Part shown: piece after piece, positions 2 to 60,371 of the stretch | Numbering within the stretch: the first letter of the stretch is position 1 | How the letters are laid out: each line of letters opens with the position of its first letter | DNA from: Deltaproteobacteria bacterium | GTDB taxonomy: Bacteria; CALINM01 | Direction: 5' to 3' | Length of the DNA stretch: 64,000 nt | Assembly: GCA_037442505.1 (NCBI GenBank) | Contig: JBBIPZ010000007.1 | Location: 3,758-67,757 of the forward strand | The notes under the pieces: model-generated | Database searches by the model: none | What the model was told of the DNA's origin: nothing | What the model saw: only the letters and a program-made list of their open reading frames with translations | Made by a program: the position numbers and the translations under genes

Positions 2-1219
2 CCGAAAACAGAGTCTATCCCGATATTTTATCTCAACGACAAGACTATACATCTTTCGCATTTTAGAAGGAATACAGATCATTTTATTATAAAGCCTTTT
101 AATGTTGATGAACTGAAAAGGATTTTAACTGCGGCAAGAAAAAAGATACTCAATACTACATACTTTAAAAAGGAAGACGAGTTCTCTGGCAATTTAAAGC
201 AGATGCAGATGCCCGACTTGTTGCAGGTGCTCTCAATGAATCAAAAGACAGGCAATCTTTATGTTTATTCAGATACATCTAACAAGGAAAAGAAAGCGAT
301 CGTCTCTTTATATAAAGGCAGAATTATCAATGCGTCGCTACCAAAAATATCTGGTTTAAAGGCAATGTATAGAGTACTCGCAATCAAAGACGGTTATTTT
401 TGTTTTGTGCCAAGCGAACCAGAACTTCCTCATGTTATTTCCGAATCTGCTGACAGCCTTATAATGGAAGGATTAAGACAAAACGATGAAATGCAGGAAA
501 TCAGAAAGAAGTTAGGTGGGGGAAAACTTAAAATTTATCTCAATGTAAGTTTGGAAAAACTACCACAGGGATTAAGACCCAAGACGCTTGAAGTAATCTC
601 TGCCATAGATGTATTTCCCGATTTAAACGAGTTGATTGATAATGTGAGTGTGCTTGATTATGAAGTTTTAAAAATAATACAGGGGTTAAAGGAAAAGAAT
701 GTTATCAGAATTGAGGAAGTGTCTGATGCTCTCCCAACAAATAACATTACGTTTTCTGCAGACCTTTTACTTGAACTTAAGAAGGCAATAAATAAGAGAT
801 ATTATGGATTGCAGCCACCGTATAATCTCGTAATGCCAGTATTTATAGAGGGTTATAACACGGAGCCTTTTCTTAAAAATTTGATAAAGTTTAATTTTAC
901 TCCCTATAAAAAGGATATGCTATCTCTCAGGCAAAAAGAAAAAAATATAGGGTTTTTAGGTATGCTTAAGCTTGTAGATAGTCTAAATGTTATCCTTGTG
1001 TATTTTAATAATTTTGTGCCGTTTAAACCTTTTTTTAATGCGTATCTTTCTCGCTGTTTAGGGGCGCTAATTGTTGGGGAAAAGGACAGATTTAACTATG
1101 TAGTCAATTTTTTTGGTAAAAAAACCGCGTTTATCGCTTTAAAAGATTTATATAATTTTGAGGTTTTAAAAAAGGCTATAGAAAAGATTTTTGAAAATTT
1201 TATTAAGGAGAATATATGA
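2..1219 (+). CDS. Response regulator (5' partial), receiver-like C-terminus fused to a DUF4388-like domain and an unassigned C-terminal region
   Basis: Frame 2 is open from the window edge. Translation reads ...DHFIIKPFNVDELKRIL (receiver alpha5-like), then LLQVLSMNQKTGNLYV...GRIINAS, which resembles DUF4388. Stop TGA at 1217-1219. Confidence 0.55.
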   Translation, partial: PKTESIPIFYLNDKTIHLSHFRRNTDHFIIKPFNVDELKRILTAARKKILNTTYFKKEDEFSGNLKQMQMPDLLQVLSMNQKTGNLYVYSDTSNKEKKAIVSLYKGRIINASLPKISGLKAMYRVLAIKDGYFCFVPSEPELPHVISESADSLIMEGLRQNDEMQEIRKKLGGGKLKIYLNVSLEKLPQGLRPKTLEVISAIDVFPDLNELIDNVSVLDYEVLKIIQGLKEKNVIRIEEVSDALPTNNITFSADLLLELKKAINKRYYGLQPPYNLVMPVFIEGYNTEPFLKNLIKFNFTPYKKDMLSLRQKEKNIGFLGMLKLVDSLNVILVYFNNFVPFKPFFNAYLSRCLGALIVGEKDRFNYVVNFFGKKTAFIALKDLYNFEVLKKAIEKIFENFIKENI

Positions 1220-14459: not shown

Positions 14460-14788
14460 GCTTATCACCTCCTTTCTTTTAGTAGTTGCTAAAAATCTGT
14501 TTTTTTGACCTCCCTCCCTAAATATCAGACTTTTTAGCACCATCTTTTATTTAGTTTTCAATTTAAAAAATTGTTTTATTTTTGTCAATAAAAAAATGTT
14601 CTATTCCTATGATATTTTTTTCACAAGCGTTTAATTGATTAAAATTAAGATATTTTTTGTAATAAAAAAATATGTAAAATATTTCATATGGTTATGCAAA
14701 ATCATAAAAAGTAAACAACTTTAGAAAAATTAAGTCAAAAAAAGATGACGTTGATTTTTCCAATCTAACTTTGATAGACTTTACAGTG

Positions 14789-15559
14789 ATGAAAGTTTTT
14801 GTCGCGATATTTGTATTTTTTTTCGGAGCAGTAATTGGGAGCTTTCTCAATGTATGCATTTATCGTATTCCTCGCAAGATATCCATTGTTTTCCCTTCAT
14901 CATTTTGTCCTGCATGTAATAAGCCAGTTCCTACGCAATATAACATCCCTCTTTTAGGTTTTATCATATTATCTGGAAAATGCAAGTTTTGTGGGAAAAA
15001 AATTTCTTTTCGTTATCCATTTGTTGAGTTTGTTACCGGTTTAGCTGCGTTATTTTGTTATATATCGTTCACACCTTTACATGCACTTATCAACTTCTGT
15101 TTTATATCAGTACTTATTATTATTACATTTATAGACCTTGATTTTCAGATAATACCAGATGTGTTAAGTTTGCCAGGGATTGTAATAGCAGCTCTTATTT
15201 CATACTTTTTTTTTAACAGAAGTTTCACTTCAATTATCGTTGCTATTTTGGTGGGTGGTGGGATATTTTATTTAATTGGCGTTGTTTATGAGTTTCTTGC
15301 GAAACGTGAAGGTTTGGGTGGTGGGGACGTAAAACTTCTGGCATTTTTCGGTGCCTTCTTGGGGCTTAAATCTATACCTTTTATCATTTTAGTTAGTTCT
15401 TTAACTGGGACGATTGTTGGTGTATATCTTATGCTTTTTAAAGGTAAAAATTCTACGTTTGCAATTCCTTTTGGTCCCTTTCTATCTGGCGCTGCCTTTT
15501 TATACCTGTTTTTTGGTGAAAAGATAATAAACTGGTATTTAACCTTGTTTTTAAGATGA
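14789..15559 (+). CDS. pilD: Type IV prepilin peptidase (A24 family)
   Basis: MKVFVAIFVFFFGAVIGSFLNVCIYRIP, then a CPACNK...CKFCGK zinc-binding N-domain and a polytopic C-domain. The ORF could instead start at TTG 14771. Confidence 0.85.
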   Translation: MKVFVAIFVFFFGAVIGSFLNVCIYRIPRKISIVFPSSFCPACNKPVPTQYNIPLLGFIILSGKCKFCGKKISFRYPFVEFVTGLAALFCYISFTPLHALINFCFISVLIIITFIDLDFQIIPDVLSLPGIVIAALISYFFFNRSFTSIIVAILVGGGIFYLIGVVYEFLAKREGLGGGDVKLLAFFGAFLGLKSIPFIILVSSLTGTIVGVYLMLFKGKNSTFAIPFGPFLSGAAFLYLFFGEKIINWYLTLFLR

Positions 15560-15603
15560 AAGATGCAGATTTTAAACAATTTTATTGTGTAAAAGGAGGG
15601 GTT

Positions 15604-16164
15604 ATGACGGTTTACGAAGCAATTTTAAAACGAAGAAGTGTTAGAAAATTTAAACAGAAAGATATTCCTGATGATGTGCTTTTAAAAATGCTTGAAGCAG
15701 CAAGATTTGCTCCGAGTTGGGCAAATACCCAGTGTTGGCGTTTTATTGTAGTTAAAGAACGCGAAACAAAGGAGAAAATTTCAGATGCCTTTCCGCCAAG
15801 AAATCCCGGTTTTTCAAGTCTTATTAGTGCCCCAGTTGTTATTGTTGCATTTGCTGAAAAGTTTAAGTCTGGTTTTTACAAGGGAGAGGCATCTACAAAC
15901 AAAGGTGAATACTGGTATATGTTTGATGTCGCATTGGCATTGCAGAATATGGTGTTAACTGCATGGGAAGATGGTATTGGTTCTGTCTATCTGGGTCTTT
16001 TTGATGCTCAAAAAGTTGCCAATACGTTGAACATACCAGTAGATTATGAGGTGGTTGCGATACTGCCTTTTGGTTATCCTGACGAAGAACCTAAATGTCC
16101 ACCAAGGAAAAATCTGGAAGAGATTGTGTTCTATGAAAACTATTCCGAGTCAAAGGTAGAATAA
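15604..16164 (+). CDS. Nitroreductase-family NAD(P)H oxidoreductase
   Basis: MTVYEAILKRRSVRKF start with SD AAGGAGGGG. The ORF track shows a longer frame from 15556. Confidence 0.75.
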   Translation: MTVYEAILKRRSVRKFKQKDIPDDVLLKMLEAARFAPSWANTQCWRFIVVKERETKEKISDAFPPRNPGFSSLISAPVVIVAFAEKFKSGFYKGEASTNKGEYWYMFDVALALQNMVLTAWEDGIGSVYLGLFDAQKVANTLNIPVDYEVVAILPFGYPDEEPKCPPRKNLEEIVFYENYSESKVE

Positions 16165-16835
16165 ATAAGTTTTTTTGCCAATAAATCTGCAAAATTGCGA
16201 TCGTAGGGAACTTGCTTTAATATAAAGGCAGGTTCTCTTTCAAGTTCAATAATTAAGTATTTTGCAAGGTTATCAGAATTGTCAGGAACACCTACGCTAC
16301 CGGGATTTAACACATAGCCCTCTCTTGTCTCGATAATCATTGGCTGATGGGTGTGCCCGCAAACTATTATATCAACCATATTTTCGTTAAGTAGATTTTC
16401 TAAATAAAATGTCGAAGTGTTGAAATATATATAATTAGCAATCCCTTTTGGACTTCCGTGAACAAGCAACATCCTTTTCTTTTCAAAATGTAGCTCTATC
16501 TTTTGTGGTAGCCCTGATAAAAAATCTTTTACTTTTTCTGAAAGATTTTGTCTTGTCCACTGAAACACCTTTCTTCGTTCCTCTGGTAGATCTTTCTTTA
16601 GATACAGGATGCCTTCTTTTTCCTCTTTGCAAAGACAGGCTTTATCATAATTTCCAAGAATTGTGATAATGTTTTTGTCTATAATAAACTCAATAACCTC
16701 TTCAATCTGGGGGTAGTATCCAACAAGGTCTCCAAGCGCATAAATCTGGGACACACCTTCACTCTTTATGTCGTTATAAACTGCTTCTAAGGCGATAAAG
16801 TTTGCATGAATATCAGAAACTATTGCAATTTTCAT
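16140..16835 (-). CDS. Calcineurin-like metallophosphoesterase (YfcE/MJ0936 family)
   Basis: MKIAIVSDIHAN...GDLVGY...GHTH motifs. Overlaps the convergent nitroreductase gene by 25 nt. Confidence 0.7.
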   Translation of the reverse strand: MKIAIVSDIHANFIALEAVYNDIKSEGVSQIYALGDLVGYYPQIEEVIEFIIDKNIITILGNYDKACLCKEEKEGILYLKKDLPEERRKVFQWTRQNLSEKVKDFLSGLPQKIELHFEKKRMLLVHGSPKGIANYIYFNTSTFYLENLLNENMVDIIVCGHTHQPMIIETREGYVLNPGSVGVPDNSDNLAKYLIIELEREPAFILKQVPYDRNFADLLAKKLIYSTFDSE

Positions 16836-16898
16836 AATAAATATGTATAAAGCTAATTATAGATTTTTTCAAGCAAAACTTTTTTAAAAGGATTAGCT

Positions 16899-18656
16899 AT
16901 GGCAACCGTTAGAAAAAAGTTGGGTGAGTTGCTTATTGAAGCTGGATATATTAATGAAAAGATCCTTGAAGAAGCATTGAAAAATGCTGCGATGACAGGC
17001 AAAAGGATAGGAGAGGTTTTAATATCAGAGGGTTACATTACAGAAGATTTAATCGCTAAAGCGCTTGGTGAACAGTATAGGATTCCTTATATCGGAGAAA
17101 ACATTCTGGATGTTGAAAAACGTTTTGTTGATTTGATGCCCTCAGAACTTGCTTATAAACTAAATGCCTTGCCTATTTATGACACGCATACGGAAGTAAC
17201 TGTCGCAATAGTAGATCCTTTAAACATCAATGTAATGGATGAACTTAAAAGGTTTTTTAAAAAGCGTATAAAACCCGTTGTTACAACCGAAACATTAATG
17301 AAACAGGCTCTGAACAAATTTTATGCTACAAAAGGTGAAGATCTGGACAGAATATTAAAGCAGATCGATTTGAGGTCGTATGAAGCGAGAGCCTCAGACG
17401 AATCGCCTGAAAGATTGATGAGATTAGCTGAAGAAGCTCCAATTGTCCAGATCGTTAATGGGGTATTGATACAAGCCACTAATGATAGGGCAAGCGATAT
17501 TCATTTAGAAGGTGTAGGCAACAAATTGAGAATACGGTTTAGAATAGATGGAGTGCTACATGATATTGTTGAACTACCGAGGGCGTTGATGAATCCTATA
17601 ATTTCAAGAATAAAGATTATGGCAGATATGGATATTTCTGAAAAAAGACTGCCTCAAGACGGTCATATGCAGATGGAGGTCAGATTTCAGGAAGGTAGAT
17701 ACACCCTTGTTAGAACTTTCGTTGGCAGGTCTGTGTTGCGTTATGAAGAGCTAGAAGTTATTGATATAAGGGTGTCAACTACGCCTACCATTCAGGGTGA
17801 AAAGGTTGTGTTAAGGCTTTTAAAAAAACGAGACGAATTGCTTAACCTTGAAAATTTGAACATGGAAAGAGAGACCGTTGTTCGTGTAAGAAAAGCCTTG
17901 AACAGACCTTATGGTATGATTCTTATATCAGGACCTACCGGTTCTGGTAAAACGACGACTGCGTATGCCTGTTTAAAATATATCCACAAGAAAGAAAAAA
18001 ACATTATAACGATAGAAGACCCTGTTGAGTATCAGTTTATGGGTATAAATCAAATACAGATTAATCCAAAAATCGGCTTAACATTTTCGAATGCTTTAAG
18101 AAGCATATTAAGGCAGGATCCTGACATTATTTTAGTAGGTGAAATAAGGGATAAAGAGACAGCTGAAATTGCAATACATGCGTCTTTAACCGGGCATATT
18201 GTGATTTCGACAATACATACAAACAATTCAATAGCAACTATAGCAAGACTTCAGGATATGGGTATTGAGCCGTACCTTATATCTTCTTCTATTTCGTGTA
18301 TTATGTCTCAAAGGCTTTTACGCAAGATTTGCCCTTACTGCAAGAAGGATTACACTCCTATGGAGTCATTGATTGCTGAACTAAAGCTCCCCCCATTTAC
18401 AAAATTTTACAGAGGTAAAGGATGTCAAAAGTGTCGCGAAACGGGTTATATAGACAGAGTTGGAATTTACGAACTGCTTATTTTTACTGACAGGATAAGA
18501 GAACTTGTGTTAGCTAAGGCAGGCACAAAAGAAATTGCCGAAGCTGCGAAAAAAGAAGGATTTATATCGCTTGCAGAGGCTGGTATCAGGCTTGTTGTCA
18601 GCGGTATAACAACTATTGATGAAGTTGTTTCAGCCACATTGGAAGAGGGACTCTGA
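16899..18656 (+). CDS. pilB: Type IV pilus / T2SS assembly ATPase (GspE/PilB) with N-terminal GspE_N domain
   Basis: Walker A GPTGSGKTTT, Asp/His boxes, and the tetracysteine CPYC...CQKC motif. Confidence 0.9.
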   Translation: MATVRKKLGELLIEAGYINEKILEEALKNAAMTGKRIGEVLISEGYITEDLIAKALGEQYRIPYIGENILDVEKRFVDLMPSELAYKLNALPIYDTHTEVTVAIVDPLNINVMDELKRFFKKRIKPVVTTETLMKQALNKFYATKGEDLDRILKQIDLRSYEARASDESPERLMRLAEEAPIVQIVNGVLIQATNDRASDIHLEGVGNKLRIRFRIDGVLHDIVELPRALMNPIISRIKIMADMDISEKRLPQDGHMQMEVRFQEGRYTLVRTFVGRSVLRYEELEVIDIRVSTTPTIQGEKVVLRLLKKRDELLNLENLNMERETVVRVRKALNRPYGMILISGPTGSGKTTTAYACLKYIHKKEKNIITIEDPVEYQFMGINQIQINPKIGLTFSNALRSILRQDPDIILVGEIRDKETAEIAIHASLTGHIVISTIHTNNSIATIARLQDMGIEPYLISSSISCIMSQRLLRKICPYCKKDYTPMESLIAELKLPPFTKFYRGKGCQKCRETGYIDRVGIYELLIFTDRIRELVLAKAGTKEIAEAAKKEGFISLAEAGIRLVVSGITTIDEVVSATLEEGL

Positions 18657-19867
18657 TGCCAAAATTTTTTTATAGGGCAAGAGATAGGCAGGGAAAACTT
18701 TACGAAAGCTTTGTTGAAGTCCCATCAAGAGAAGATGCTTTAAAGATTGTTGAAAACGAGGGGTTAATTCCGCTTGAGGTTAAAGCATCAAGGCATTTTT
18801 TTTTAAAATTTAATTTAAATTTGTTTTCTTCAATATCTAAAACAGACATCATACTTTTTTCAACACAGCTTGCAACCATGCTAAAGGCTGGACTTCCTAT
18901 TACAAGGTCTTTAAAGGCGATACAAACACAGATAAAGTATAAACGTTTTCGAGATGCGATAGATAATATAGTACAAAATATCGAAAGGGGAAGGTCATTT
19001 TACAATGCACTAAGCCAATACCCGCAGTTTTTTGACAGTATTTATGTTGCAACTGTTCAGATAGGAGAGGTTAGTGGAAACCTACCCGAAATATTATTGA
19101 GGCTTGCTGAAAGCATCGAGAAAGACGAGTCTGTGAAACAGAAGATAAAGAACGCAACCCTTTATCCCAAAATGGTTGTAGGGGCAATATTTGTAGCAAT
19201 TATCATTTTGATAACCTTTGTAATTCCCAAGTTTGCCGCGCTTTATAAAGGGTTTAAGGTACAGTTACCTTTGCCTACAAGAATATTGATTGGCATTTCT
19301 GGTTTTGTTCAACATCATTGGCTAATCATCTTACTTTTTTTTCTATGTATTGTAGGCTGTTTCATATATTTAAAGCACACTTCAACTGGAAGAAGGATTT
19401 ACGATCCAATGATATTAAAACTGCCAATTTTTGGTGATTTGGCACTTAAAATAATTATGGTTAGATTTTCACGTTTTTTTTCATTATTATTTTCAAGTGG
19501 TGTGGTTATAACAAATATTCTCGATTTGTTGAAAGATGCGCTTGGTAACGTCGTTTTTAAGAAAAAGGTGCAGGATATTAAAAAAGATATTCTTGCTGGT
19601 GTGAGCTTTAGTGAGGCTGTTAGTAAGACGGGTTTTTTTACGCCACTGGTTCAGGAGATGATTAATGTGGGCGAAGAAACTGGTTCACTTGACGAGATGC
19701 TAAAGAAAGTGTCAGATTTTTACGAAAATGAGTTAGACTTTACTATCAAAAATTTGACCACTTTGATTGAACCGATTATGCTTGTTGTGATATTTGGTAT
19801 GGTATTATTCCTTGCTTTAAGCGTTTTTCTGCCAATGTGGGATATGGTAAAGTTTGTTAAAACATGA
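18656..19867 (+). CDS. pilC: Type IV pilus / T2SS inner-membrane platform protein (GspF/PilC)
   Basis: 403 aa, duplicated T2SSF domains. Start overlaps the pilB stop. Confidence 0.85.
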   Translation: MPKFFYRARDRQGKLYESFVEVPSREDALKIVENEGLIPLEVKASRHFFLKFNLNLFSSISKTDIILFSTQLATMLKAGLPITRSLKAIQTQIKYKRFRDAIDNIVQNIERGRSFYNALSQYPQFFDSIYVATVQIGEVSGNLPEILLRLAESIEKDESVKQKIKNATLYPKMVVGAIFVAIIILITFVIPKFAALYKGFKVQLPLPTRILIGISGFVQHHWLIILLFFLCIVGCFIYLKHTSTGRRIYDPMILKLPIFGDLALKIIMVRFSRFFSLLFSSGVVITNILDLLKDALGNVVFKKKVQDIKKDILAGVSFSEAVSKTGFFTPLVQEMINVGEETGSLDEMLKKVSDFYENELDFTIKNLTTLIEPIMLVVIFGMVLFLALSVFLPMWDMVKFVKT

Positions 19868-20241
19868 TGAAGTTCGAGCGCTATAAAAGATACACCTCTT
19901 TTGAAAACGCCCTCGTGTTTATCTTTATCCTGATAGTAGCAACATTATTGTTTTCGTATTTCAAAAAGTATGAAGATGTTATAAAAACTAAAGTTGCGAA
20001 TGAACAATTGTATCAGATAAATACTGCCATAGTCATTTATACTATAACTAAGGGTAAATTTCCTGATGATATAAAACAGCTTGTTACTGAAAATATGGTA
20101 ACTATTTCTGGCGAAACGTTTTTTAACAAAAAGTATATAGAAGGTTTGACTTTTGATAATGAAGGCTTCCCAATAGATCCGTGGGGTAATAGATACCGGT
20201 ATGATAAAGCTAAGGGATTGGTGTTCTTAGAAAAAAAGTAA
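19864..20241 (+). CDS. GspG-like pseudopilin / pilin with an atypical class III signal
   Basis: Hydrophobic N-terminal helix and a C-terminal FPIDPWGNRYRY motif (the GspG DPWG signature). The canonical G-F-T-L-I-E cleavage motif is absent (KRYTSFENAL). Confidence 0.4.
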   Translation: MMKFERYKRYTSFENALVFIFILIVATLLFSYFKKYEDVIKTKVANEQLYQINTAIVIYTITKGKFPDDIKQLVTENMVTISGETFFNKKYIEGLTFDNEGFPIDPWGNRYRYDKAKGLVFLEKK

Positions 20242-20301: not shown

Positions 20302-20526
20302 ATGATGGTTTTGGGGGAGATAGAAAGAAATCAAACAGAAATACTTAGAGTTTCTTTGGAAAACTTTAAAGGCAGGGATTATATTGACCTTAGAATTTAC
20401 TATCTTGACGAAAATGGCAAAGAATGGAAACCAACTAAAAAAGGAGTCACAGTTGCACCTGATAAGCTTGATCAGGTGATTGGCTTTTTTGAAAAAGCCA
20501 AGGAAGAACTTGCAAAAAAACAGTAG
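20302..20526 (+). CDS. PC4-like single-stranded-DNA-binding small protein (YdbC/PF02229-like)
   Basis: 74 aa: RVSLENFKGRDYIDLRIYY.DENGKEWKPTKKGVTV... matches the bacterial PC4-fold pattern. SD AGGAGG. Confidence 0.5.
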   Translation: MMVLGEIERNQTEILRVSLENFKGRDYIDLRIYYLDENGKEWKPTKKGVTVAPDKLDQVIGFFEKAKEELAKKQ

Positions 20527-20589: not shown

Positions 20590-20623
20590 ATTGTTAACAT
20601 CTACTTAAATTAAGGTTGACAAT
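20590..20623 (+). promoter_or_regulatory. Candidate BirA operator overlapping the bioB promoter -35
   Basis: Imperfect inverted repeat ATTGTTAAC-N16-GTTGACAAT (one mismatch). The right arm contains TTGACA. Confidence 0.35.
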
Positions 20624-20678
20624 TCTGTGTGTAATTTATTAATATGTCTCTTGTTTTAATTAAACACAGGAGGCAGAG

Positions 20679-21656
20679 ATGTTATCGTATATAGAAAAGT
20701 TAAAAAATCAGGTGTTAGAAGGTTATGAGATAGCTCAATTAGAAGCGCTAAACTTATTTGAAGAGGGAATTAAATCACCATTTTATCTTTTGGCTGCAGC
20801 ATCAGATATAAGAGAACGATTCAAAGGCAAAAAGATAAATCTCTGTGGCATTGTTAATGCAAAGTCGGGTAGATGTGCGGAAAACTGCAAATTTTGCGCT
20901 CAATCATCTTACTATAAAACAGATGCGCCTTCTTATCCATTAATTTCTGCAGATGATATAATCTCACAGGCAAAGGCAGCAAAAGACAACGGAGCGCATA
21001 TGTTTGGTATCGTTACAAGTGGAACTAAAATTAGTAGTGACGCCGAGTGGGACGAAATTTTTATCGCTGTAAAAGGTATAAAAGAGGCTGGGATTTTACC
21101 CTGTGCTTCGCTTGGTATTCTTGACTATGATAAGGCTCTTGCTTTGAAAGAATCAGGGCTTTTTAGATATCACCATAATTTAGAAACCTCAAAATCTTTT
21201 TTCCCAAACATTTGTTCAACACATGATTATGAAGAAGATGTTAAAACCGTTGAAGCAGCAAAGGCAGCCGGGTTATCCACGTGTTGTGGTGGAATAATAG
21301 GTTTAGGCGAGACGATAGAACATCGGATAGAATTGGCAATCCTGCTTAGAGAACTTGATGTTGATTCTGTGCCGATAAACATACTCAATCCCATTGTTGG
21401 CACACCACTTGAAAATGCAAAAGCTTTATCTCCTATTGAAATTTTATGTAGTATCGCTATTTTTCGTTTTATTTTGCCCCAAAAAGATATTAAACTATGT
21501 GGCGGTAAGGAAAAAAATTTAAGACAGCTTTTGCCGCTTGGTATTATTGCAGGCTGTAACTCATTAATGACTGGCAACTATCTTACTACTGCAGGGAGGG
21601 ATACCGCTCTGGATTACGAAATGATTGCTGACTTAGGGCTTAAGGCTGTTATTTAA
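20679..21656 (+). CDS. bioB: Biotin synthase
   Basis: Radical SAM CxxxCxxC (CAENCKFC) and the BioB family pattern. Confidence 0.9.
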   Translation: MLSYIEKLKNQVLEGYEIAQLEALNLFEEGIKSPFYLLAAASDIRERFKGKKINLCGIVNAKSGRCAENCKFCAQSSYYKTDAPSYPLISADDIISQAKAAKDNGAHMFGIVTSGTKISSDAEWDEIFIAVKGIKEAGILPCASLGILDYDKALALKESGLFRYHHNLETSKSFFPNICSTHDYEEDVKTVEAAKAAGLSTCCGGIIGLGETIEHRIELAILLRELDVDSVPINILNPIVGTPLENAKALSPIEILCSIAIFRFILPQKDIKLCGGKEKNLRQLLPLGIIAGCNSLMTGNYLTTAGRDTALDYEMIADLGLKAVI

Positions 21657-21668
21657 TGGGGGCAAATT

Positions 21669-23513
21669 ATGATGGCAAAAGGAACGCACAAGATTCTTTA
21701 TCTTGGTGCAGATGATGTTTTTTTTAAAGAGCTTCAAGATATTTTTGTAAGTGAACCTGTTTTTTTGGAACATTTTTTAAGAGAGAGTCTTTCTTTTGCT
21801 ATCCTGCCACAAAAGGATTACTCTGTCATAATCGTTGACGCAGATTATAAAACCCCACTCACCTTTATAGAAACGCTTAGAGTGATATACAAAGATTTCT
21901 TTAAACCTTACATAATGCTTCTTGCTAAATTGGAACAGGTAAAATCTCTAAAAAATTTGATAAACTTTAAAAACTATCCTGATGATATCTGCCTTAAAAA
22001 CATCGATAAAAAATGTATTGCAAACCAGATACTTTTTGGTTGTTCGAGTTCTATATGCACAAAAGATGCTTTATGTAGCGCTGGGGAAATACAAAAAGGC
22101 GATTTTAAAGATTTATCTTATGGTAGTTTGTTGTTCAAGCTTTATAAGGAAAAATTTACTGGGAGACTGATAATAGACAGCTTTTCTGATAGGGCTGTTT
22201 TTTCATTTTTAAATGGGGAGCCTGTTGATATTAAATTCAACAGGATACTATTTACATTGGGAAGGATATTGCTAAGGCGTGGCCTTTTAGATGAAGAGAC
22301 ATATTTAAAATCTATGGAGTATATGAATGAAAAAAATATTAGGCATGGCGATGCATTGGTTGAGATGGGTATACTTTCAACATCAACAATAGTTGATATG
22401 ATTGAAGAGCAGTATAAAGAAAAATTGATGTTTTTCTTCTCAAAATTTAATGGCAATTTTTTGCTTGTCCAGAGTGATGTTGAGTTTACTATTCACCCGA
22501 AAGTGGACGTCTTTAATCTAATTTATGCAGGCGTAATGCAGTATTGTTCTGCTAAATATCTTACAGAGAAGTTTTTACTATATAAAAATAAATTCGTTGC
22601 ATTAACTGAAAACTTTACACTCTTTAATAAAAAACTCCCATTTACGGAGAATGAGCATCTACTGTTATCAAGATTAGAGTCTGCACCAGAATTGATAGAA
22701 GTTTTTGAAAGCACGTCACTCGATTTAACTCATATTTTAAAACTTTTCGAGATAATCACAATTTGTGAGATGGCAAAATTTGCTGATACTAAAGCAGATG
22801 CATTGGAGATTACTAAATGGACACAGCCAAAGATGATAGAATTAAAAAATAAGATTAATGCTGATTATATGAGTCTTAAAGAAAAAAACTATTATGAAGT
22901 GTTAGGATTAAAACAGGATTGTGATAACTCGGAGATAAAAAAACGTTACTTTGAGAAGGTGAAAAATTACCATCCTGATACTTACAATCATTTGGGATTG
23001 GACAAGGATTTGATGTCTAAGGTAAATGAAATGTTCCAGTTGATACAGATAGCTTATCAAACTCTCTCAAATCAAGAATCAAGAAAAAATTATGATGCTA
23101 TAATATCTTCAACTTTTGTGAACGAAGCGATGAAGAAGAGTAGTGACATTATCAATGCAGAGATTGCATTTAAAAAAGGAGAGTTCTTATTTAAGAAAAG
23201 AAATTATAAGGATGCAGAAGGCTACTTTAGAACAGCTGTAAATCTTTATTGGAAAGAACCAGAATATCTAATTAGCCTTGCTGTTACCCTGATGTTTATT
23301 GATAATAAAAAAATAGAAAAGCTGGAAGAAGCGAAATCTCTGCTCGAAAAGGCTATTTATATTAACCCTTATTATGACAAGTCTTATCATTATCTTGGTA
23401 TTTTTTATAAACTTACCGGAAATACAGCTGAGGCAAAGGCTTGCTTAAAAAAGGCGGTTGAGCTAAACCCTTCAAACAAAGAAGCGATCATGGAGTTAAA
23501 AAGCCTTGAGTAG
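21669..23513 (+). CDS. Multi-domain protein with a degenerate receiver-like N-terminus, a DUF4388-like domain, a J domain and C-terminal TPR repeats
   Basis: KILYLGADD...VIIVDADYKT (REC-like), LLFKLYKEKFTGRLII...NGEPVDI (DUF4388-like), YYEVLGL...KKRYF...HPD (J domain with HPD), TPR-like C-terminus. Sits between bioB and bioF. Confidence 0.6.
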   Translation: MMAKGTHKILYLGADDVFFKELQDIFVSEPVFLEHFLRESLSFAILPQKDYSVIIVDADYKTPLTFIETLRVIYKDFFKPYIMLLAKLEQVKSLKNLINFKNYPDDICLKNIDKKCIANQILFGCSSSICTKDALCSAGEIQKGDFKDLSYGSLLFKLYKEKFTGRLIIDSFSDRAVFSFLNGEPVDIKFNRILFTLGRILLRRGLLDEETYLKSMEYMNEKNIRHGDALVEMGILSTSTIVDMIEEQYKEKLMFFFSKFNGNFLLVQSDVEFTIHPKVDVFNLIYAGVMQYCSAKYLTEKFLLYKNKFVALTENFTLFNKKLPFTENEHLLLSRLESAPELIEVFESTSLDLTHILKLFEIITICEMAKFADTKADALEITKWTQPKMIELKNKINADYMSLKEKNYYEVLGLKQDCDNSEIKKRYFEKVKNYHPDTYNHLGLDKDLMSKVNEMFQLIQIAYQTLSNQESRKNYDAIISSTFVNEAMKKSSDIINAEIAFKKGEFLFKKRNYKDAEGYFRTAVNLYWKEPEYLISLAVTLMFIDNKKIEKLEEAKSLLEKAIYINPYYDKSYHYLGIFYKLTGNTAEAKACLKKAVELNPSNKEAIMELKSLE

Positions 23514-24675
23514 TTTTGAAATTCAGATACGAGAAGAACTTGAAAGTTTATCTGCTGATGGGCTTTTGCGAACTGTTGATAGTATTGAAACAGGGTGTTT
23601 TTCTCAAATCACGATTGATGGGCAAACATTTCTAAATTTTTGCTCAAATAATTATCTTGCTCTAAATGGACATCCTTATATCGCAAATGCAATGAAAAAA
23701 GCAATTGATCTTTGGGGAACATCCTGTTCTGCATCAAGATTAATTGTTGGCAGTATTAAACTTTTTGAAGAGGCTGAAGAGCGCTTAGCTGGTTTTAAAA
23801 GAAAAGAAGCTGCTTTAATCTTCCCTTCAGGGTATCAAGCCAATGTCTCGGTTATTGCTACCCTGGCATCGTCTGAAGATAACATATTTAGTGATCAGCT
23901 AAATCATGCAAGCATTATTGATGGTTGTAAGTTAAGCAGGGCAAAATTATCTATTTATAGACATAGAGATGTAAACAACTTAGAAGATTTGTTAAAAAAT
24001 TCAAAATCAAGAAGAAAGATTATCGTAACAGATGGTGTCTTTAGTATGGATGGTGATATTGCTCCTCTTAAAGAGATAAGCGAGCTTGCAGACAGGTACG
24101 ATGCAGTAGTTATTGTTGATGATGCTCATGCAACAGGTGTTTTGGGAAAGGACGGTAAAGGCACATTAGAACTGTTTGACTTACAACAAAAGAAAAACAT
24201 AATGGTGTTGGGTACAGGAGGGAAGGCCTTAGGCGTTGGTGGAGCATTTTTTTGTTGTCCTGACTATATAAAGCAGTATCTGATCAATAAATCGAGAGGT
24301 TTTATTTACACTACTGCCACTGTTCCTGCAATTCCCGCCGGGCTTATGGCTTCCTTGGATGTAATAGTTAATGAACCAGATAGACGAAAAAGACTACATG
24401 AGCTGTCTAATTATTTTCATCAGAGATTAAAGGCAGAAGGATTTATGACTTCCAAAACACCTTCCCATATATTGCCACTAATTATTGGAGACAATCAAAA
24501 GGTAATAGATATGGCATTGATTCTAAGAAAAAACGGCATATATGTTAAACCTATTAGATTTCCTACCGTCCCAAAGGGCACCGAGCGAATAAGATTTAGC
24601 CTGACCTCACATCACACAAAAGAAGATGTTGATAAGGTTATTGACATAATAAAATCATATATTTTATTGCGTTAA
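23506..24675 (+). CDS. bioF: 8-amino-7-oxononanoate synthase (PLP-dependent)
   Basis: AONS family pattern, PLP lysine region (SMDGDIAPL). TTG start overlapping the upstream stop. Confidence 0.8.
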   Translation: MSSFEIQIREELESLSADGLLRTVDSIETGCFSQITIDGQTFLNFCSNNYLALNGHPYIANAMKKAIDLWGTSCSASRLIVGSIKLFEEAEERLAGFKRKEAALIFPSGYQANVSVIATLASSEDNIFSDQLNHASIIDGCKLSRAKLSIYRHRDVNNLEDLLKNSKSRRKIIVTDGVFSMDGDIAPLKEISELADRYDAVVIVDDAHATGVLGKDGKGTLELFDLQQKKNIMVLGTGGKALGVGGAFFCCPDYIKQYLINKSRGFIYTTATVPAIPAGLMASLDVIVNEPDRRKRLHELSNYFHQRLKAEGFMTSKTPSHILPLIIGDNQKVIDMALILRKNGIYVKPIRFPTVPKGTERIRFSLTSHHTKEDVDKVIDIIKSYILLR

Positions 24676-24686
24676 AAGAGGTTGTT

Positions 24687-26030
24687 ATGAATATTAGAGA
24701 GAAAGATAAAGCGTATCTATGGCATCCATTTACGCAAATGAGAGATTGGTTGAGTGAAGAACCACTTGTTATCGAAAGAGGTGTGGGTAACTATCTTATT
24801 GATGATAAAGGAAATAAATATCTCGATGGCGTTTCTTCATTATGGGTAACTGTTCATGGACATAATCATCCTAAGATTAATGAGGCGATAAAAAATCAAC
24901 TTGACAAAATTGCACATTCTACAATGCTTGGGCTTACCAATCCCAAAGCGGTAGATTTGGCGGAAAAACTTATAAGTATAGTGCCTATGGGATTGAGAAG
25001 GGTGTTTTATTCCGACAACGGTTCCACATCAGTTGAGATTGCTTTAAAGATGGCTTTTCAGTATTTTCAACACAAAGGTAAGTTGTCCCGTACTAAATTT
25101 GCGTATCTAAGTAATGCCTATCATGGAGATACTATTGGAGCTGTGAGCGTAGGTGGGATAGAACTTTTTCACAGCACATTTAAGCCCTTACTTTTTGAAG
25201 GTTTCAAATTGCCATCACCTTATTGTTACCGTTGTGAGCTTGGTAAAGATAGAGAAAATTGCGGAAAAGACTGTTTGAAGAAAACTAAAGAGATACTTGA
25301 GAAAAACAGAGAAAAAATTGCAGCATTAATTATGGAGCCTCTTGTGCAGGGTGCTGCTGGAATGATAACACAGCCAGAAGGGTATCTAAGAGAAATAGCG
25401 GATATTTGTAAAGAAAACAATATACTATTGATACTCGATGAAGTTGCTACAGGCTTTGGTAGAACTGGCAAGATGTTTGCCTGCCAACACGAAGATGTTA
25501 CGCCCGATTTCCTTTGTGTTTCTAAAGGTATAACAGGCGGTTATCTGCCACTTGCAGCTACCATAACGACAGAAGATGTCTTCAATGCGTTTTTAGGGGA
25601 ATATAGCGAGTTTAAGACATTTTTTCATGGACATACATATACTGGAAACCCTTTAGCGTGCGCCGCAGCTATAGCAAATTTAGAGTTGTTCAACACTGAA
25701 CACACTTTAGAAAAAATGCAGGATAACATATCGTTTTTTGCGAAAAAGTTGGAGATGTTTAAGTCATATAAATATGTTGGTGAAGTGAGACAGCGCGGAT
25801 ATATGGTTGGCATAGAGATCGTAAAAGACAAACGAACAAAAGAGATGTTTCCTGTAGAAGACAAAGTTTGTATAAAAATCTCTGCAAAGGCAAGGGATTT
25901 TAATATTATCACGCGCCCCTTGGGTAATGTTCTTGTAATGATGCCACCGCTTGGTATTACAAAACAGGAGATAGAAATTTTATGCGAAGGTATCTACAAT
26001 AGTATGCTTATGATTCTGGAGAAAAGATGA
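24687..26030 (+). CDS. bioA: Adenosylmethionine-8-amino-7-oxononanoate aminotransferase
   Basis: WHPFTQM N-terminus and class III aminotransferase motifs. Confidence 0.9.
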   Translation: MNIREKDKAYLWHPFTQMRDWLSEEPLVIERGVGNYLIDDKGNKYLDGVSSLWVTVHGHNHPKINEAIKNQLDKIAHSTMLGLTNPKAVDLAEKLISIVPMGLRRVFYSDNGSTSVEIALKMAFQYFQHKGKLSRTKFAYLSNAYHGDTIGAVSVGGIELFHSTFKPLLFEGFKLPSPYCYRCELGKDRENCGKDCLKKTKEILEKNREKIAALIMEPLVQGAAGMITQPEGYLREIADICKENNILLILDEVATGFGRTGKMFACQHEDVTPDFLCVSKGITGGYLPLAATITTEDVFNAFLGEYSEFKTFFHGHTYTGNPLACAAAIANLELFNTEHTLEKMQDNISFFAKKLEMFKSYKYVGEVRQRGYMVGIEIVKDKRTKEMFPVEDKVCIKISAKARDFNIITRPLGNVLVMMPPLGITKQEIEILCEGIYNSMLMILEKR

Positions 26031-26674
26031 GATACTTCGTTACTGGAACTGATACTGGTGTCGGCAAAACGTATGTTTTATCGTTAATTCTCAAATTTTT
26101 TATTGCAAACGGTTATTATCCATCTGTGATGAAACCTATAGAGACAGGATGTAGTACATATAAAGGCGAACTTATTCCAGAAGATGGTTTGCAGCTTTCT
26201 GATATTGTTAAAATGAGCAACCAGTTAGATAAGGTTGTGCCTTATAGATTTGAGACACCAGTAGCACCTTATGTTGCATCACTTTTAGAAAATAAAGAGA
26301 TAGATTTAAATAACATAAAACAGCTTTCTGATAATCTCAAAGAGCCTTTATTTGTAGAAGGAGCTGGTGGACTAATGGTACCTATCAAGAGAAATTTTTT
26401 TATGATAGACCTTGTAAACTATTTAAATCTTGAAGTGATATTTATTTCTCCACTTCGCTTAGGAACAATAAATCAGACGCTGCTGAATATAGAAGCAATG
26501 GAAAGGCGTAACCTTAAGATAAAAGGCATAATTCTAAACGATACAGACGGTATAGTAACACCAGCAACAAGAACAAACCCTGAGGTATTAAAAGAGCTTC
26601 AACCTTATCCTGTAATTGCGGTTGTGCCTTACAAATGTTTAGCTTTACCTGATTTTTCTGCATTGTTGCGGTAA
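26027..26674 (+). CDS. bioD: Dethiobiotin synthetase
   Basis: P-loop GTDTGVGKT. ATGA overlap with bioA. Confidence 0.8.
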   Translation: MRYFVTGTDTGVGKTYVLSLILKFFIANGYYPSVMKPIETGCSTYKGELIPEDGLQLSDIVKMSNQLDKVVPYRFETPVAPYVASLLENKEIDLNNIKQLSDNLKEPLFVEGAGGLMVPIKRNFFMIDLVNYLNLEVIFISPLRLGTINQTLLNIEAMERRNLKIKGIILNDTDGIVTPATRTNPEVLKELQPYPVIAVVPYKCLALPDFSALLR

Positions 26675-26762: not shown

Positions 26763-27971
26763 ATGCATCTGGTAATAATTGGTTTAAGTGCCGCAGGTCT
26801 TACTGCTTTGGATACACTTGTAAAACATGCTAAGGACTGTAAAATAACAGTAGTTACAGAAGAACGATATGAACCATATTCACGCTGTCTTCTAACTAAC
26901 TATCTTGGCACAGAAATTGGACTTGGTAACCTTTTTATTTCTAACTCATCATTGTATCCTGCTAATGTAAAATGTATTTTTGGTAAAAAAGTAGTTAGTA
27001 TTGATAAAGATTCTAAAAAGCTGATACTGGGCGATGGTAGTTTTATTTTTTACGATAAGTTATTACTTGCTACTGGTGCTGAACCCATTAAACCAGCTTA
27101 TGCACTTAAAGCTAAAAGAGTGTTTACGTTAAGACGCATTCAGGATGTTAGCAAAATTTGCGAAAAACTCAACGATAAGGCGATAGTATTGGGTGGTGGA
27201 TTTGTAGGGATAAAAACCGCTTATGGGTTGCTTGAAAGGGATGTTAGGGTAAATCTTGTTATTTCATCTGCATATCCGTTATCAATGATACTTGATGAAG
27301 AATTGGGAAAGATTGTCGAAAGAGAGTTAAAGGATCTTGGAATATCGGTGTTTACAAATAGCGATGTTGTTGAAATTGCAAAAAAGCCCAATGGCATTTA
27401 TGCTGTTTTATCGTCAAACAAAACATTAGAGAGCGATGTGGTCATTGTGGGAAAAGGCGTCACGCCAAGAATAGAACTTGCAGAATCTGCTGGTGTTGCG
27501 ATTAATAAAGGAATCCTTGTAAACAGCTTTTTAGAGACATCAGTAAAAGATATCTTTGCTGCAGGGGATTGTGTTGAGGCATATGATATCACAAGGAAAG
27601 ATAATTTTATTAACGCAATCTGGCCAAATGCTGTAGAACAGGGCTATTATGCCGCAATGAATATGTTAGGTAACTGCTTGAGTTATTCAGGCAGCATAGG
27701 TTGTAACAGTTTAAAGACTAAAACGTTTCATTTAATTACTGCAGGGATTCTAAAAGGTAAGGATGTAAAGACATATAGACATTATGTGGCATCAAAAAAA
27801 CAGCTTCGTGAAGTTGCTTTTATTGATGACATACCAGTAGGAATGGCATTTTTAAATTCATTTGAAGACGCAGGTGTGCTAGTTAATTTGATTAAAAGGG
27901 GAGAGCCTATCAATTGTTTTCCCGAACAGTTAGTTAACGGAGAATATAATTTACTGCAAAACTTATTTTAG
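26763..27971 (+). CDS. FAD-dependent pyridine nucleotide-disulfide-family NAD(P)H oxidoreductase
   Basis: Two Rossmann dinucleotide motifs (VIIGLSAAG; VLGGGFVG) and a possible redox Cys (YSRC). Confidence 0.7.
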   Translation: MHLVIIGLSAAGLTALDTLVKHAKDCKITVVTEERYEPYSRCLLTNYLGTEIGLGNLFISNSSLYPANVKCIFGKKVVSIDKDSKKLILGDGSFIFYDKLLLATGAEPIKPAYALKAKRVFTLRRIQDVSKICEKLNDKAIVLGGGFVGIKTAYGLLERDVRVNLVISSAYPLSMILDEELGKIVERELKDLGISVFTNSDVVEIAKKPNGIYAVLSSNKTLESDVVIVGKGVTPRIELAESAGVAINKGILVNSFLETSVKDIFAAGDCVEAYDITRKDNFINAIWPNAVEQGYYAAMNMLGNCLSYSGSIGCNSLKTKTFHLITAGILKGKDVKTYRHYVASKKQLREVAFIDDIPVGMAFLNSFEDAGVLVNLIKRGEPINCFPEQLVNGEYNLLQNLF

Positions 27972-27973
27972 AG

Positions 27974-28582
27974 GTGATTTTTATGAAAACAGTTATAGTT
28001 AAACCCGAACGTTGTTTAGGTTGTTTGCAGTGCAGATTTGCATGTGCAGTGGCACATTCAAGGTCGAAGGATAGCTACACAGCTATCCGAGAAACACCTT
28101 TATCAAAACCAAGAATTCATATCGGACTTTTTAAAAACGCATCTCCCTTCCCAAACAAGTGTCGTCATTGTGATCCGGCACCATGTGAGAGGGCTTGTAT
28201 AACAAGGGCAATTTATCGTAACGAAGAGAAAAATATTGTCCTTATAGATCCTACACGCTGTATCAATTGTGGTATGTGTGCAATGGCATGCCCATTTGGT
28301 GTTGTGAGGTATCATGTCCAATTTAACAACAAGCTTGCTGCGCATAAGTGTGATCAATGTATTTTGAGACAAAGCGAAGGAAATGTGCCAGCTTGTGTAG
28401 AATCCTGCAAGGTAGGAGCGCTCGTATTTGGTGAAATTAATCATGAAATGGATAAAGAAACTGCTAAAGTTGCAGAACTTGTATGGTTAGGCATCCGTGA
28501 TAAAACTGAAAAAAGTGATGATGGCTTTAACACTTTAAAAGATTATAAAGCAAAATTAATTGAGATTGCCAGAAGGAGGTAG
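27974..28582 (+). CDS. CooF-like polyferredoxin (several 4Fe-4S clusters)
   Basis: Repeated CxxCxxC...CP motifs (CLGCLQCRFAC; CRHCDPAPC; CINCGMCAMACP; CDQC...C). Confidence 0.7.
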   Translation: MIFMKTVIVKPERCLGCLQCRFACAVAHSRSKDSYTAIRETPLSKPRIHIGLFKNASPFPNKCRHCDPAPCERACITRAIYRNEEKNIVLIDPTRCINCGMCAMACPFGVVRYHVQFNNKLAAHKCDQCILRQSEGNVPACVESCKVGALVFGEINHEMDKETAKVAELVWLGIRDKTEKSDDGFNTLKDYKAKLIEIARRR

Positions 28583-28587
28583 AGCAC

Positions 28588-30456
28588 ATGAAAGACTATA
28601 AAGATTACAGTATATGTAGTGATGCTCAACTGATGCTTAAAAAGGCAGAAACGGATAATGTAGAAACAGTCTGGGACAGACACAAAAAACAACAACCTCA
28701 TTGTGGATATTGTGAATTGGGGCTTTCTTGTAGAATATGTGCTATGGGACCGTGTAGAATTGACCCTTTTGGCGAAGGTCCACAAAAAGGTGTCTGTGGT
28801 GCAGATGCTGATATAATGGTTTCAAGAAACCTTGCGAGGATGATAGCTGCGGGTTCGGCATCTCATTCTGACCATGGAAGAGATCTTGTAGAAGTGTTAT
28901 ATAAAATTGGTGAAGGTAAGACTTCAGGTTATACAATTAAAGACGCCCAAAAGTTGAAAACGGTAGCTAAAGAGTATGGCATTGACGTGTCTGGTAAAGA
29001 TGAAAAAAGTATTGCAAAAGAATTGGCGTTAGCAATGATGGAAGATTATGGGATGAAGAAAGAAGCGATTACTTTTATTTCGAGAGCTCCTGCGAAGAGG
29101 GTAGAACTCTGGAGAAAATTACGCGTTCTTCCGAGGGGAATAGATAGGGAAACATCTGAAATGATGCATCGAACACATATGGGGGTGGATAATGATTATG
29201 TGTCTATCCTTTTACAGGCAGTGAGAAATAGTCTTTCTGATGGATATGGCGGTTCAATGATAGGAACAGAAGTTTCTGATATCATTTTTGGTACTCCCAG
29301 ACCCGCTTTTTCTTCTGTAAATTTGGGCGTGCTAAAAGAAGATATGGTTAATATACTTGTCCATGGACATAATCCCGTTGTTTCAGAGATGGTTTTTCTT
29401 GCTGTTAACGACCCTGCTATGATTGATGAAGCAAAGAAGGTAGGTGCAAATGGTATTAATCTTGCTGGACTTTGTTGTACAGGCAACGAATTAATGATGA
29501 GAAAGCAGGTGCCGATGGCTGGTAATCATTTGATGACGGAGCTAACAATGGTTACAGGTGTTGTTGAGGCAATAATTGTTGACTATCAATGTATAATGCC
29601 AGCACTTGGAGATGTTGCAAAGTGTTATCACACAAAGCTCTTTTCTACATCTGATAAAGCTAAATTTCCTTTTATGGAACATATTGAGTTTAATCCTGAA
29701 AATGCAAAAGAACAGGCTTATAAAATTGTTAGCATTGCTATACAAAACTTTAAAAATAGACGAAAAGATCGCATTAACATACCTGTTAGTCCTGTAAAAT
29801 CAATGACTGGTTTTTCAGTAGAGTCTATCGTAGAGGCTTTGGGTGGTTCTTTAACACCGTTGATAGAAGCAATCAAAGCAGGCAAGATTAAAGGGGCAGT
29901 TGGTGTAGTTGGTTGTAACAATCCAAAAGTGAAACAGGACTATGGGCATGTTGAGCTTATTAAGAAACTGATTGCAAATGATATTCTTGTTTTGACAACT
30001 GGTTGTGCAAATGTCGCAGCAGGCAAGGCAGGATTACAGTTGCCAGAGGCTAAAGAAATAGCTGGATCAGGTTTAAAAGAAATATGTGGTGCACTGGGAA
30101 TCCCCCCTTCTTTACACGTTGGTTCTTGTGTAGATAATTCTCGTATTCTTGTTATAGCATGTGCATTGGCAAATGCCTTAGGTGTTGATGTCTCTGATCT
30201 GCCGCTTGCTGGTGCTGCTCCAGAGTGGTATTCAGAGAAGGCTGTGGCGATAGGTTTTTATGTGATGGCTACTGGAATATTTACAGTTTTAGGAGTAATG
30301 CCGCCAATACTTGGCAGTAAAAATATTACTAATCTTGCTATCAATGGACTAAAGGATGTTTTTGGAGCAGCATTTGCTGTTGAGCCAGACCCATTGAAAG
30401 CTGCGGATTTAATTATTGAACATATAAACCAGAAAAGGAAAAAGTTAGGAATCTAA
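28588..30456 (+). CDS. cooS: Anaerobic Ni-dependent carbon monoxide dehydrogenase catalytic subunit
   Basis: 622 aa. N-terminal [20 protein letters not shown] cluster-D/B motif; C-cluster ligand motifs GVVGCNN and [10 protein letters not shown]. Not the shorter hybrid-cluster protein. Confidence 0.85.

Positions 30457-60298: not shown

Positions 60299-60371
<73 letters not shown>

Follow-up and report, generated by a model that had tools for sequence, protein, structure and literature searches.

Why should a gene for a chaperone-recruiting protein lie inside a biotin operon? The question is posed by a 64,000 nucleotide (nt) stretch of deltaproteobacterial DNA (contig JBBIPZ010000007.1, positions 3,758 to 67,757; here the window), in which a gene, termed X below, is found between bioB and bioF (21669..23513, + strand). 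An earlier note on this DNA had placed a 614-residue reading frame there, and its coordinates are exact to the base. Judged from its open reading frame (ORF), Pfam matches and AlphaFold2 (AF2) modelling, the X product has four parts: a pseudo-receiver, a PATAN domain, a J domain and tetratricopeptide repeats (TPRs). It belongs to the J-domain co-chaperones, derives from the PATAN response regulators and occupies a metabolic setting that is new and strictly conserved.

How strict the conservation is can be seen from the relatives. A word-indexed search of 5.8 billion proteins gave 17 of them, counted as sequence clusters, with 43–79% identity and, apart from a 466-residue partial, lengths of 614–618 residues. 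All are from uncultured bacteria (metagenome-assembled genomes, MAGs, and metagenome contigs), and MAGs with X include GCA_026418415.1 (JAOABK01), JAOAGA01, JBEQAF01, CAZIMS01, CALINM01 and GCA_900174565.1. Contig look-ups, GTDB representative genomes and JGI metagenomes provided ~14 independent loci, which were mapped by tblastn (the window plus loci L001-3, L005-10, L017, L018 and L020-22). A comparison of synteny was what the earlier note had proposed, and X is between bioB and bioF in all of them: the order bioB-X-bioF-bioA-bioD is found in every locus, whatever the flanking genes. On the upstream side at least three kinds of neighbourhood occur, and on the downstream side several. In the clade with 64–79% identity the upstream genes are pilB-pilC-pilin and a PC4-like gene, in L009 a gene for 3-deoxy-D-arabino-heptulosonate-7-phosphate (DAHP) synthase is there, and downstream there are TonB, hcp, UvrD and others.

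The junctions are tight on both sides. Between the TAA stop codon of bioB (21654-21656) and the ATG of X (21669) is a spacer of just 12 nt, tgggggcaaatt (21657..21668, +), with a GGGGG ribosome-binding site, and the TAG of X (23511-23513) is within bioF, the TTG start of which is at 23506, giving an overlap of 8 nt. Both had been pointed out earlier and both are borne out by direct reading. In the relatives whose loci were gene-called, bioB and X are separated by 11–12 nt or overlap by 1 nt, and the overlap of X with bioF is 8–14 nt. From these distances both junctions are of the coupling type in all gene-called loci.

Such constancy is hard to reconcile with X being a spurious gene or a decaying insertion, an idea that is refuted and to which virtually no credence can be given. 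The frame of ~615 codons is intact in 16 of the 17 sequence clusters (the remaining one is the partial), the alignment of 16 family members has 117 invariant columns, and the proportion of non-synonymous differences (pN) is well under its synonymous counterpart (pS). The AF2 models are also confident: that of the whole protein, derived from the 16-member alignment, has a pLDDT of 81, and a second one, of residues 138-404, a pLDDT of 90.5 and a pTM of 0.86. Against orthologues of 70% identity, a distance at which synonymous sites are saturated, pN is 0.17–0.19 for X, compared with 0.13 for BioB, 0.15–0.16 for BioA, 0.20–0.22 for BioF and 0.25–0.26 for BioD. As the value for X is inside the range of the Bio enzymes, X appears to be about as strongly constrained as they are.

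The genes around X are those of an ordinary biotin operon, all of them on the + strand and all above the NCBIfam equivalog cut-offs. These are bioB, for a Type II-like variant of biotin synthase (20679..21656; Radical_SAM and BATS domains, TIGR00433 383 bits against a cut-off of 225), bioF, for 8-amino-7-oxononanoate synthase (23506..24675; TIGR00858 442.7 bits against 426.45), bioA (24687..26030; Pfam Aminotran_3, TIGR00508 563 bits), and bioD, whose first 4 nt are also the last 4 of bioA (26027..26674; Pfam AAA_26, TIGR00347 161 bits). In a consensus scan of the intergenic region preceding bioB, the best + strand site is a sigma-70-like promoter, TTGACA-18-TAATAT (20616..20645, +), proposed solely from its match to the consensus (10/12). 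Overlapping its −35 box is a BirA-operator-like inverted repeat, TGTTAACA-N14-GGTTGACA (20592..20621, no strand assigned), the sole site of this type in the 64-kb window where 0.03 would be expected from shuffled sequences, and in 13 of the 14 loci of the X family an equivalent palindrome precedes bioB by 64–146 nt. We take the palindrome to be a BirA site by the published operator consensus, which reportedly goes back to Rodionov et al. in 2002. Scanning the operon for internal promoters and terminators gave counts equal to those of shuffled sequence and none that was convincing, so that a promoter and terminator belonging to X itself, the finding that the earlier note thought would tell against its embedding in the biotin gene string, did not emerge. 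Rfam revealed no riboswitch or other RNA family in the bio operon. [A tRNA gene at 60299-60371 (−) is all that Rfam matches in the window.] With a single BirA-type operator upstream of bioB and no internal promoter or terminator signal, the economical reading is that bioB to bioD would be one biotin-repressible transcription unit. The embedding of X that had been proposed is thus upheld, by the gene order conserved in all ~14 loci and the coupling-type junctions of the gene-called ones as well as by the scan.

The anatomy of the protein had also been correctly described, as a degenerate receiver-like N-terminus, a DUF4388-like domain, a J domain with its histidine-proline-aspartate (HPD) motif and C-terminal TPRs. 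Every Pfam match exceeds its curated gathering cut-off, and the DnaJ and DUF4388 matches, absence of either of which was to have spoken against the description, are both present. The J domain (residues 407-476; 22887..23096, +) matches PF00226 with an E value of 9e-18 and 64.6 bits against a cut-off of 27.8, over profile positions 1-63 of 63, and is helical in the AF2 model (residues 408-480). Its HPD motif, H435-P436-D437 (22971-22979), is invariant in 16/16 family members, and residues of helices II and III are likewise invariant across the family. After it come three TPR repeats and a capping helix (residues 482-613; 23112..23507, +). Several Pfam TPR models match residues 496-610, the best being TPR_2 (E 1.2e-11), and in Foldseek comparisons the modelled domain resembles generic three-TPR domains (those of SGT, RPAP3 and OM64; target-normalised TM score 0.64–0.89, mostly ≥0.8). 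At the position where TPRs that clamp the EEVD tail presumably have G-N, X has G504-E505, and because of this its TPR is probably not a clamp for the tail of Hsp70.

N-terminal to the J domain is the PATAN module. The PATAN domain itself (DUF4388/PatA_N; residues 141-281; 22089..22511, +) is recognised by PF14332 over residues 143-281 (E 8e-10; 39.2 bits against a cut-off of 25), and since these residues span just 107 profile positions, an insert is present within them. In the model a beta-rich core (141-268) is broken by a four-helix insert (197-258). A helical and winged-helix extension follows (residues 282-404; 22512..22880, +).

The N-terminal domain (residues 1-126; 21669..22046, +) is where X departs from a response regulator. 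Its modelled fold is CheY-like, (beta-alpha)5, with strands and helices, five of each, in alternation over residues 7-126, and it is collinear with the intact receiver (REC) domains of homologues (P0033, P0211 and others), but Pfam Response_reg (PF00072) does not match it at E≤0.01. A complete phospho-acceptor pocket (acidic pair, Asp57, Thr/Ser87, Lys109) is not what is found. The Asp, D57, is kept in 14/16 members (Glu in 2/16) and the Lys, K110, is invariant, but in place of the acidic pair there is G13-x, D15 alone being retained, and the equivalent of T87 is hydrophobic. With the acidic pair and Thr/Ser87 lost and PF00072 not matching, the alignment identifies this domain as a pseudo-receiver, and we infer that it is not phosphorylated. 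In an orthologue from a CAZIMS01 MAG (L007, 10001-12009), which is ~55 residues longer than the other members, the segment that joins the pseudo-receiver to PATAN aligns poorly; the pseudo-receiver there is 31% identical to that of the window, and by this comparison it is the fastest-evolving part of X.

From where did such a protein come? A HMMER scan of 1.84 billion representatives with a profile of the N-terminal part of X (residues 1-404; E≤0.001) retrieved 2910 proteins, most of which have only the PATAN module (X residues 141-373) in varied signalling architectures. A subset of ~630 residue proteins matches X residues 4-401 and carries an intact REC, DUF4388, DnaJ and TPRs. This canonical REC-PATAN-DnaJ-TPR family has at least 422 sequence clusters and, where its members are named, they are annotated as ‘response regulator’ proteins of Desulfuromonadales (Geothermobacter, Desulfuromonas, Malonomonas, Desulfuromusa), with receivers that match Pfam PF00072 at E values of 1e-20 to 1e-25. 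In an hhalign comparison the X family aligns with one of them, P0211 (C2E25_13050 of Geothermobacter hydrogeniphilus), practically end to end (residues 6-612 against 3-606; probability 100%, E 5.6e-45, 25% identity). The two share collinear architecture, a length of ~630 residues, a J domain, an insert-bearing PATAN and C-terminal TPRs; the differences are that the Desulfuromonadales proteins have a bona fide receiver and a gene located after glnE, and that identity is ~25%. Membership of X in this family over its full length was absent from the earlier note. A literature search found no paper on the REC-PATAN-DnaJ-TPR family, nor one on a bio operon that includes a J protein.

In three loci the canonical gene directly follows glnE in gatA-gatB-mtnA-glnE strings (L011 7001-8893, L012 7001-8905 and L013 7001-8896), with anything from a 4 nt overlap to a 24 nt gap, and in these three loci there are no bio genes near it. 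By sequence, X is a divergent branch of this uncharacterised family of J-domain response regulators, one in which the receiver chemistry was lost and the gene relocated to the bio operon. As the relatives with an intact REC are beside glnE and the pocket of X is degenerate, phospho-control was lost together with the gene's transfer to an operon regulated by biotin. A nearer relative had been suggested in the gene that runs off the start of the window (2-1219, +), which was thought to be paralog-like. It encodes a REC, of which the C-terminal part is visible, and a DUF4388 without the helical insert. What stands of the suggestion is a shared domain family, both proteins matching PF14332; close paralogy was rejected (BLASTP E=0.07; hhalign probability 8%, E 0.004). 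[That gene is followed by a PHP-domain gene at 1216-1866, an ORF without a Pfam match at 2046-2456 and ClpB at 2513-5107.]

What would a protein of this kind do for biotin synthesis? J domains stimulate ATP hydrolysis by DnaK-type Hsp70s, and in this way the chaperone is loaded onto any substrate bound elsewhere on the J protein. No other part of X has a biochemical activity that is established. The mechanism proposed is built on DnaK loading, and that X recruits DnaK is something we infer from the presence of the J domain. (There is no dnaK gene in the 64-kb window.) Recruitment of Hsp70 from within the bio operon is a reasonable reading, strengthened by the conservation and unproven. X would be a lineage-specific J-domain co-chaperone, drawn from the REC-PATAN-DnaJ-TPR family, that has shed its phosphorylation control and become fixed in the bio operon. 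Transcription from the BirA-controlled bio promoter, and translational coupling to bioB and bioF, would confine its production to times of biotin synthesis and keep it in step with the Bio enzymes. Its pseudo-receiver, PATAN or TPR parts would hold a client, and its HPD-containing J domain would trigger ATP hydrolysis by DnaK and so load DnaK on that client. The client would be a protein of the biotin pathway, with BioB as first candidate, and DnaK might then assist BioB folding, the insertion or regeneration of its clusters, or its clearance after damage. That the client should be sought in the biotin pathway is argued by the invariant operon position, the two-sided coupling, the operator and the replacement of phospho-control by the operon. 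The loci thus suggest, short of proof, that a small group of uncultured anaerobes devotes a chaperone helper to making biotin. The reading of X as an adaptor, regulated by biotin, through which DnaK would reach a client in the biotin pathway, with BioB the likeliest, is the one tentatively favoured here, and it is held with considerable reserve.

The case for BioB has several strands. Its gene is directly upstream, and it is a radical-SAM enzyme with two Fe-S clusters that is labile to oxygen and turnover. Biotin synthase is inefficient and damages itself in turnover, and restoration in vivo of the auxiliary Fe-S cluster, or in Type II enzymes of the additional sulfide, is the task with which a helper might assist. 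There is also a precedent, since Reyda et al. in 2009 reportedly found that HscA, an Hsp70, complexes with E. coli BioB and enhances cluster assembly in vivo. Catalysis by Type II BioB is apparently limited by a missing factor, and comparative-genomic attempts to find a helper gene for it all failed (Lachowicz et al. 2024, PMC10813225). BioB as the client is the best candidate on these grounds, though taken as a specific claim it is doubtful. The same can be said of its fullest form, also rather improbable, in which X would be an accessory factor of anaerobic BioB that docks the Type II-like variant so that DnaK opens it for re-insertion or re-sulfuration of the auxiliary Fe-S cluster.

The BioB variant next door merits attention of its own. 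Of solved structures it is closest to the Type II BioBs 8vdw (E 3e-93) and 8vcw, well ahead of E. coli 1r30. At the positions around the auxiliary cluster it has, in E. coli numbering, C43, G97, C128, C188, K260 and C262, and all X-linked BioBs are identical there. Type I BioB has C97 and R260, and the Type II signature is S97 and R260 (Lachowicz et al. 2024, PMC10813225). Because the pattern of the window fits neither Type I nor the published Type II, yet is common to the 120 nearest BioBs, the C43/G97/C128/C188/K260/C262 enzymes would seem to form a widespread subtype of their own, the third, in which position 262 has an additional Cys. By BioB similarity the X-linked enzymes are mutual nearest neighbours, which fits a single insertion or later losses alike.

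A number of observations weigh against the adaptor reading. C43, G97, K260 and C262 are common to the 120 nearest BioBs, including those of Syntrophales and Syntrophorhabdaceae, and the three closest inspected lineages without X, the BioBs of which are ~70% identical, have a solitary bioB with neither X nor adjoining bioFAD. As sister lineages have the same BioB variant without X, X is not obligate for this type of BioB, and the notion that it is a subtype-specific partner was rejected. The X family is very narrow (~17 clusters among the 5.8 billion proteins), the PATAN superfamily is otherwise linked to signalling, type IV pili and cell polarity, and in the window's own clade the bio operon is just 3′ of the pilB-pilC-pilin genes. 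Lastly, the canonical genes are joined just as closely to glnE, which encodes an unrelated enzyme, so that tight operon embedding may be a habit of the family and not a pointer to the client. It is from these last considerations that the chief rival draws its strength, namely that X is simply the copy of the REC-PATAN-DnaJ-TPR regulator in this lineage, with a role in signalling or polarity, acting on type IV pili or other non-biotin targets, for which the bio operon only supplies a promoter. PATAN response regulators reportedly bind PilB and PilC in Synechocystis (bioRxiv 10.1101/2021.06.11.447907), type IV pili of Nostoc have been connected with a DnaK1/DnaJ3 system (PMC9239167), the N-terminal module of PilB/MshE is a homologue of the PATAN insert, and the glnE operons look as arbitrary a setting for the canonical family as the bio operon does for X. 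The pilus genes, however, are upstream in one clade only and not in that of 43–50% identity (L006, L007, L009), on account of which a link of X to them was set aside, while the bio context is invariant and the position between bioB and bioF, with its tight junctions, is kept down to 43% identity. It would also be odd for a pilus or polarity factor to be made solely under biotin limitation. On balance this rival is unlikely, though it is a serious contender. A scaffold, in which the TPR and PATAN surfaces would assemble BioF, BioA, BioD and BioB into a metabolon and the J domain would be vestigial, could account for the several protein-protein interaction domains and for synthesis of X in step with the enzymes through translational coupling. 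The family-invariant HPD and helix II/III residues argue instead for a working Hsp70 interface and against a vestigial J domain, making a scaffold quite improbable.

The remaining rival involves the insert, by which X might be a sensor. The insert (residues 196-248; 22254..22412, +) is homologous to the 53-residue MshEN module, and it is laid out as TLGRILLRRGLLDEETYLKSMEYM, then NEKNI, then RHGDALVEMGILSTSTIVDMIEEQ, which at 24+5+24 residues is the exact MshEN spacing. Aligned by hhalign with the N-terminus of the window's PilB it gives an E value of 1.8e-5, the best match of the X family profile in the PDB is MshE (5HTL, E 6e-5), and by Foldseek it superposes on 5HTL, which is MshEN with cyclic di-GMP (c-di-GMP) bound, at 0.7 Å over 54 columns. 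Binding of c-di-GMP or another small molecule could then let X tune the activity or stability of the biotin enzymes, with the J domain as output. Besides the spacing and the superposition, the family-invariant residues T196, Y212, R225, H226, G227 and Q248 would favour this, as they imply a conserved site. Against it, the relaxed MshEN motif (Wang et al. 2016, PMC5013675) fails at three positions, the first and last of repeat 1 (T196 for [RKPN], M219 for [QNKRYWST]) and the second of repeat 2 (H226 where a hydrophobic residue is needed), in a module whose affinity is lowered >10-fold by single hydrophobic substitutions (same source). The score with NCBIfam NF053729 is 24.4 bits, under the cut-off of 38, and the degenerate pattern is general to PATAN inserts. 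A functional c-di-GMP receptor is therefore not supported and the insert, as its sequence reads, is filed as MshEN-like in fold and not a c-di-GMP receptor. Sensing of a ligand by X seems improbable.

The ‘alpha-helical insertion’ of PATAN domains is generally an MshEN homologue, in sequence and in structure, with a ligand-contacting motif that is degenerate in X and in the canonical family. The ‘alpha-clip’ insert of PATAN is thereby connected with MshEN, a nucleotide-binding module. In the three canonical loci, L011, L012 and L013, a convergent PilZ-domain gene is immediately 3′ of the canonical gene. Among the Foldseek matches of the insert is 7lkm, the MshEN-like N-domain of Xanthomonas citri PilB, which is known to bind a PilZ protein. 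The adjacent PilZ-domain gene and the analogy with this PilB domain together raise the thought that PilZ proteins might dock on the PATAN insert.

Should the BioB version of the adaptor reading be true, X would be the first ‘helper’ gene for BioB turnover, one missed by searches of genome neighbourhoods. In any case, a gene with a J domain that is fixed under a biotin operator in a whole lineage is a concrete, and clonable, candidate for such a helper. X also documents the rewiring of a phospho-controlled family of J-domain response regulators, with decay of the receiver and control passed to the operon promoter. If instead X merely borrows the bio promoter for other ends, the finding shrinks to a curiosity of gene order.

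Several features of the surroundings can be recorded here. Upstream of the bio operon is a type IV pilus/type II secretion block (14771-20241), kept only in the 64–79% identity clade of X, with genes for a prepilin peptidase (14771-15559), a PilB-type ATPase with an MshEN domain (16899-18656), PilC (18656-19867) and a pilin-like T2SSG protein (19864-20241). Between the last of these and the bio promoter is a 74-residue ORF (20302-20526, +), counterparts of which in L001, L008 and L010 carry PF02229 (PC4, a single-stranded-DNA-binding fold). Downstream of bioD, in the window as in L001 and L008, is a cluster for a pyridine-nucleotide-disulfide oxidoreductase, a 4Fe-4S ferredoxin and a hybrid-cluster protein (Prismane). 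It is co-directional in the window (26763-30456) and inverted in L001 (14050-17739) and L008 (13026-16713).

Among known systems the closest functional parallel to what is proposed for X is HscB-HscA, in which a J co-chaperone for one cofactor-related client is encoded in the operon of the pathway served. HscB is small, consists of a J domain and an IscU-binding helical domain and is encoded in isc operons, whereas X has pseudo-REC, PATAN and TPR parts and is in a bio operon. Neither Pfam nor NCBIfam gave a match to an HscB-type C-terminal domain in X, where a TPR follows the J domain, and on this sequence evidence X falls outside the HscB family. With MshEN of Vibrio cholerae MshE (5HTL) X shares the 53-residue four-helix module of two 24-residue repeats and a 5-residue spacer, though in MshE this leads a secretion ATPase and in X it sits inside the PATAN domain. 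Cyanobacterial regulators of the PatA/PixG type share with X a PATAN domain (PF14332) with an alpha-helical insert, together with a receiver domain, but their order is PATAN then REC, J domain and TPRs are lacking, and they serve heterocyst patterning and pilus-based phototaxis, functions unconnected with biotin. AtcJ of Shewanella shares an operon with the proteins that are its partners, and the eukaryotic DNAJC3 and DNAJC7 combine TPRs with a J domain. The relationship of these three to X in sequence is confined to the J domain, and domain order and clients differ. PATAN is regarded, reportedly since Makarova et al. (2006), as a protein-protein interaction module, and AtcJ is a short bacterial J protein dedicated to one physiological task (PMC6715715).

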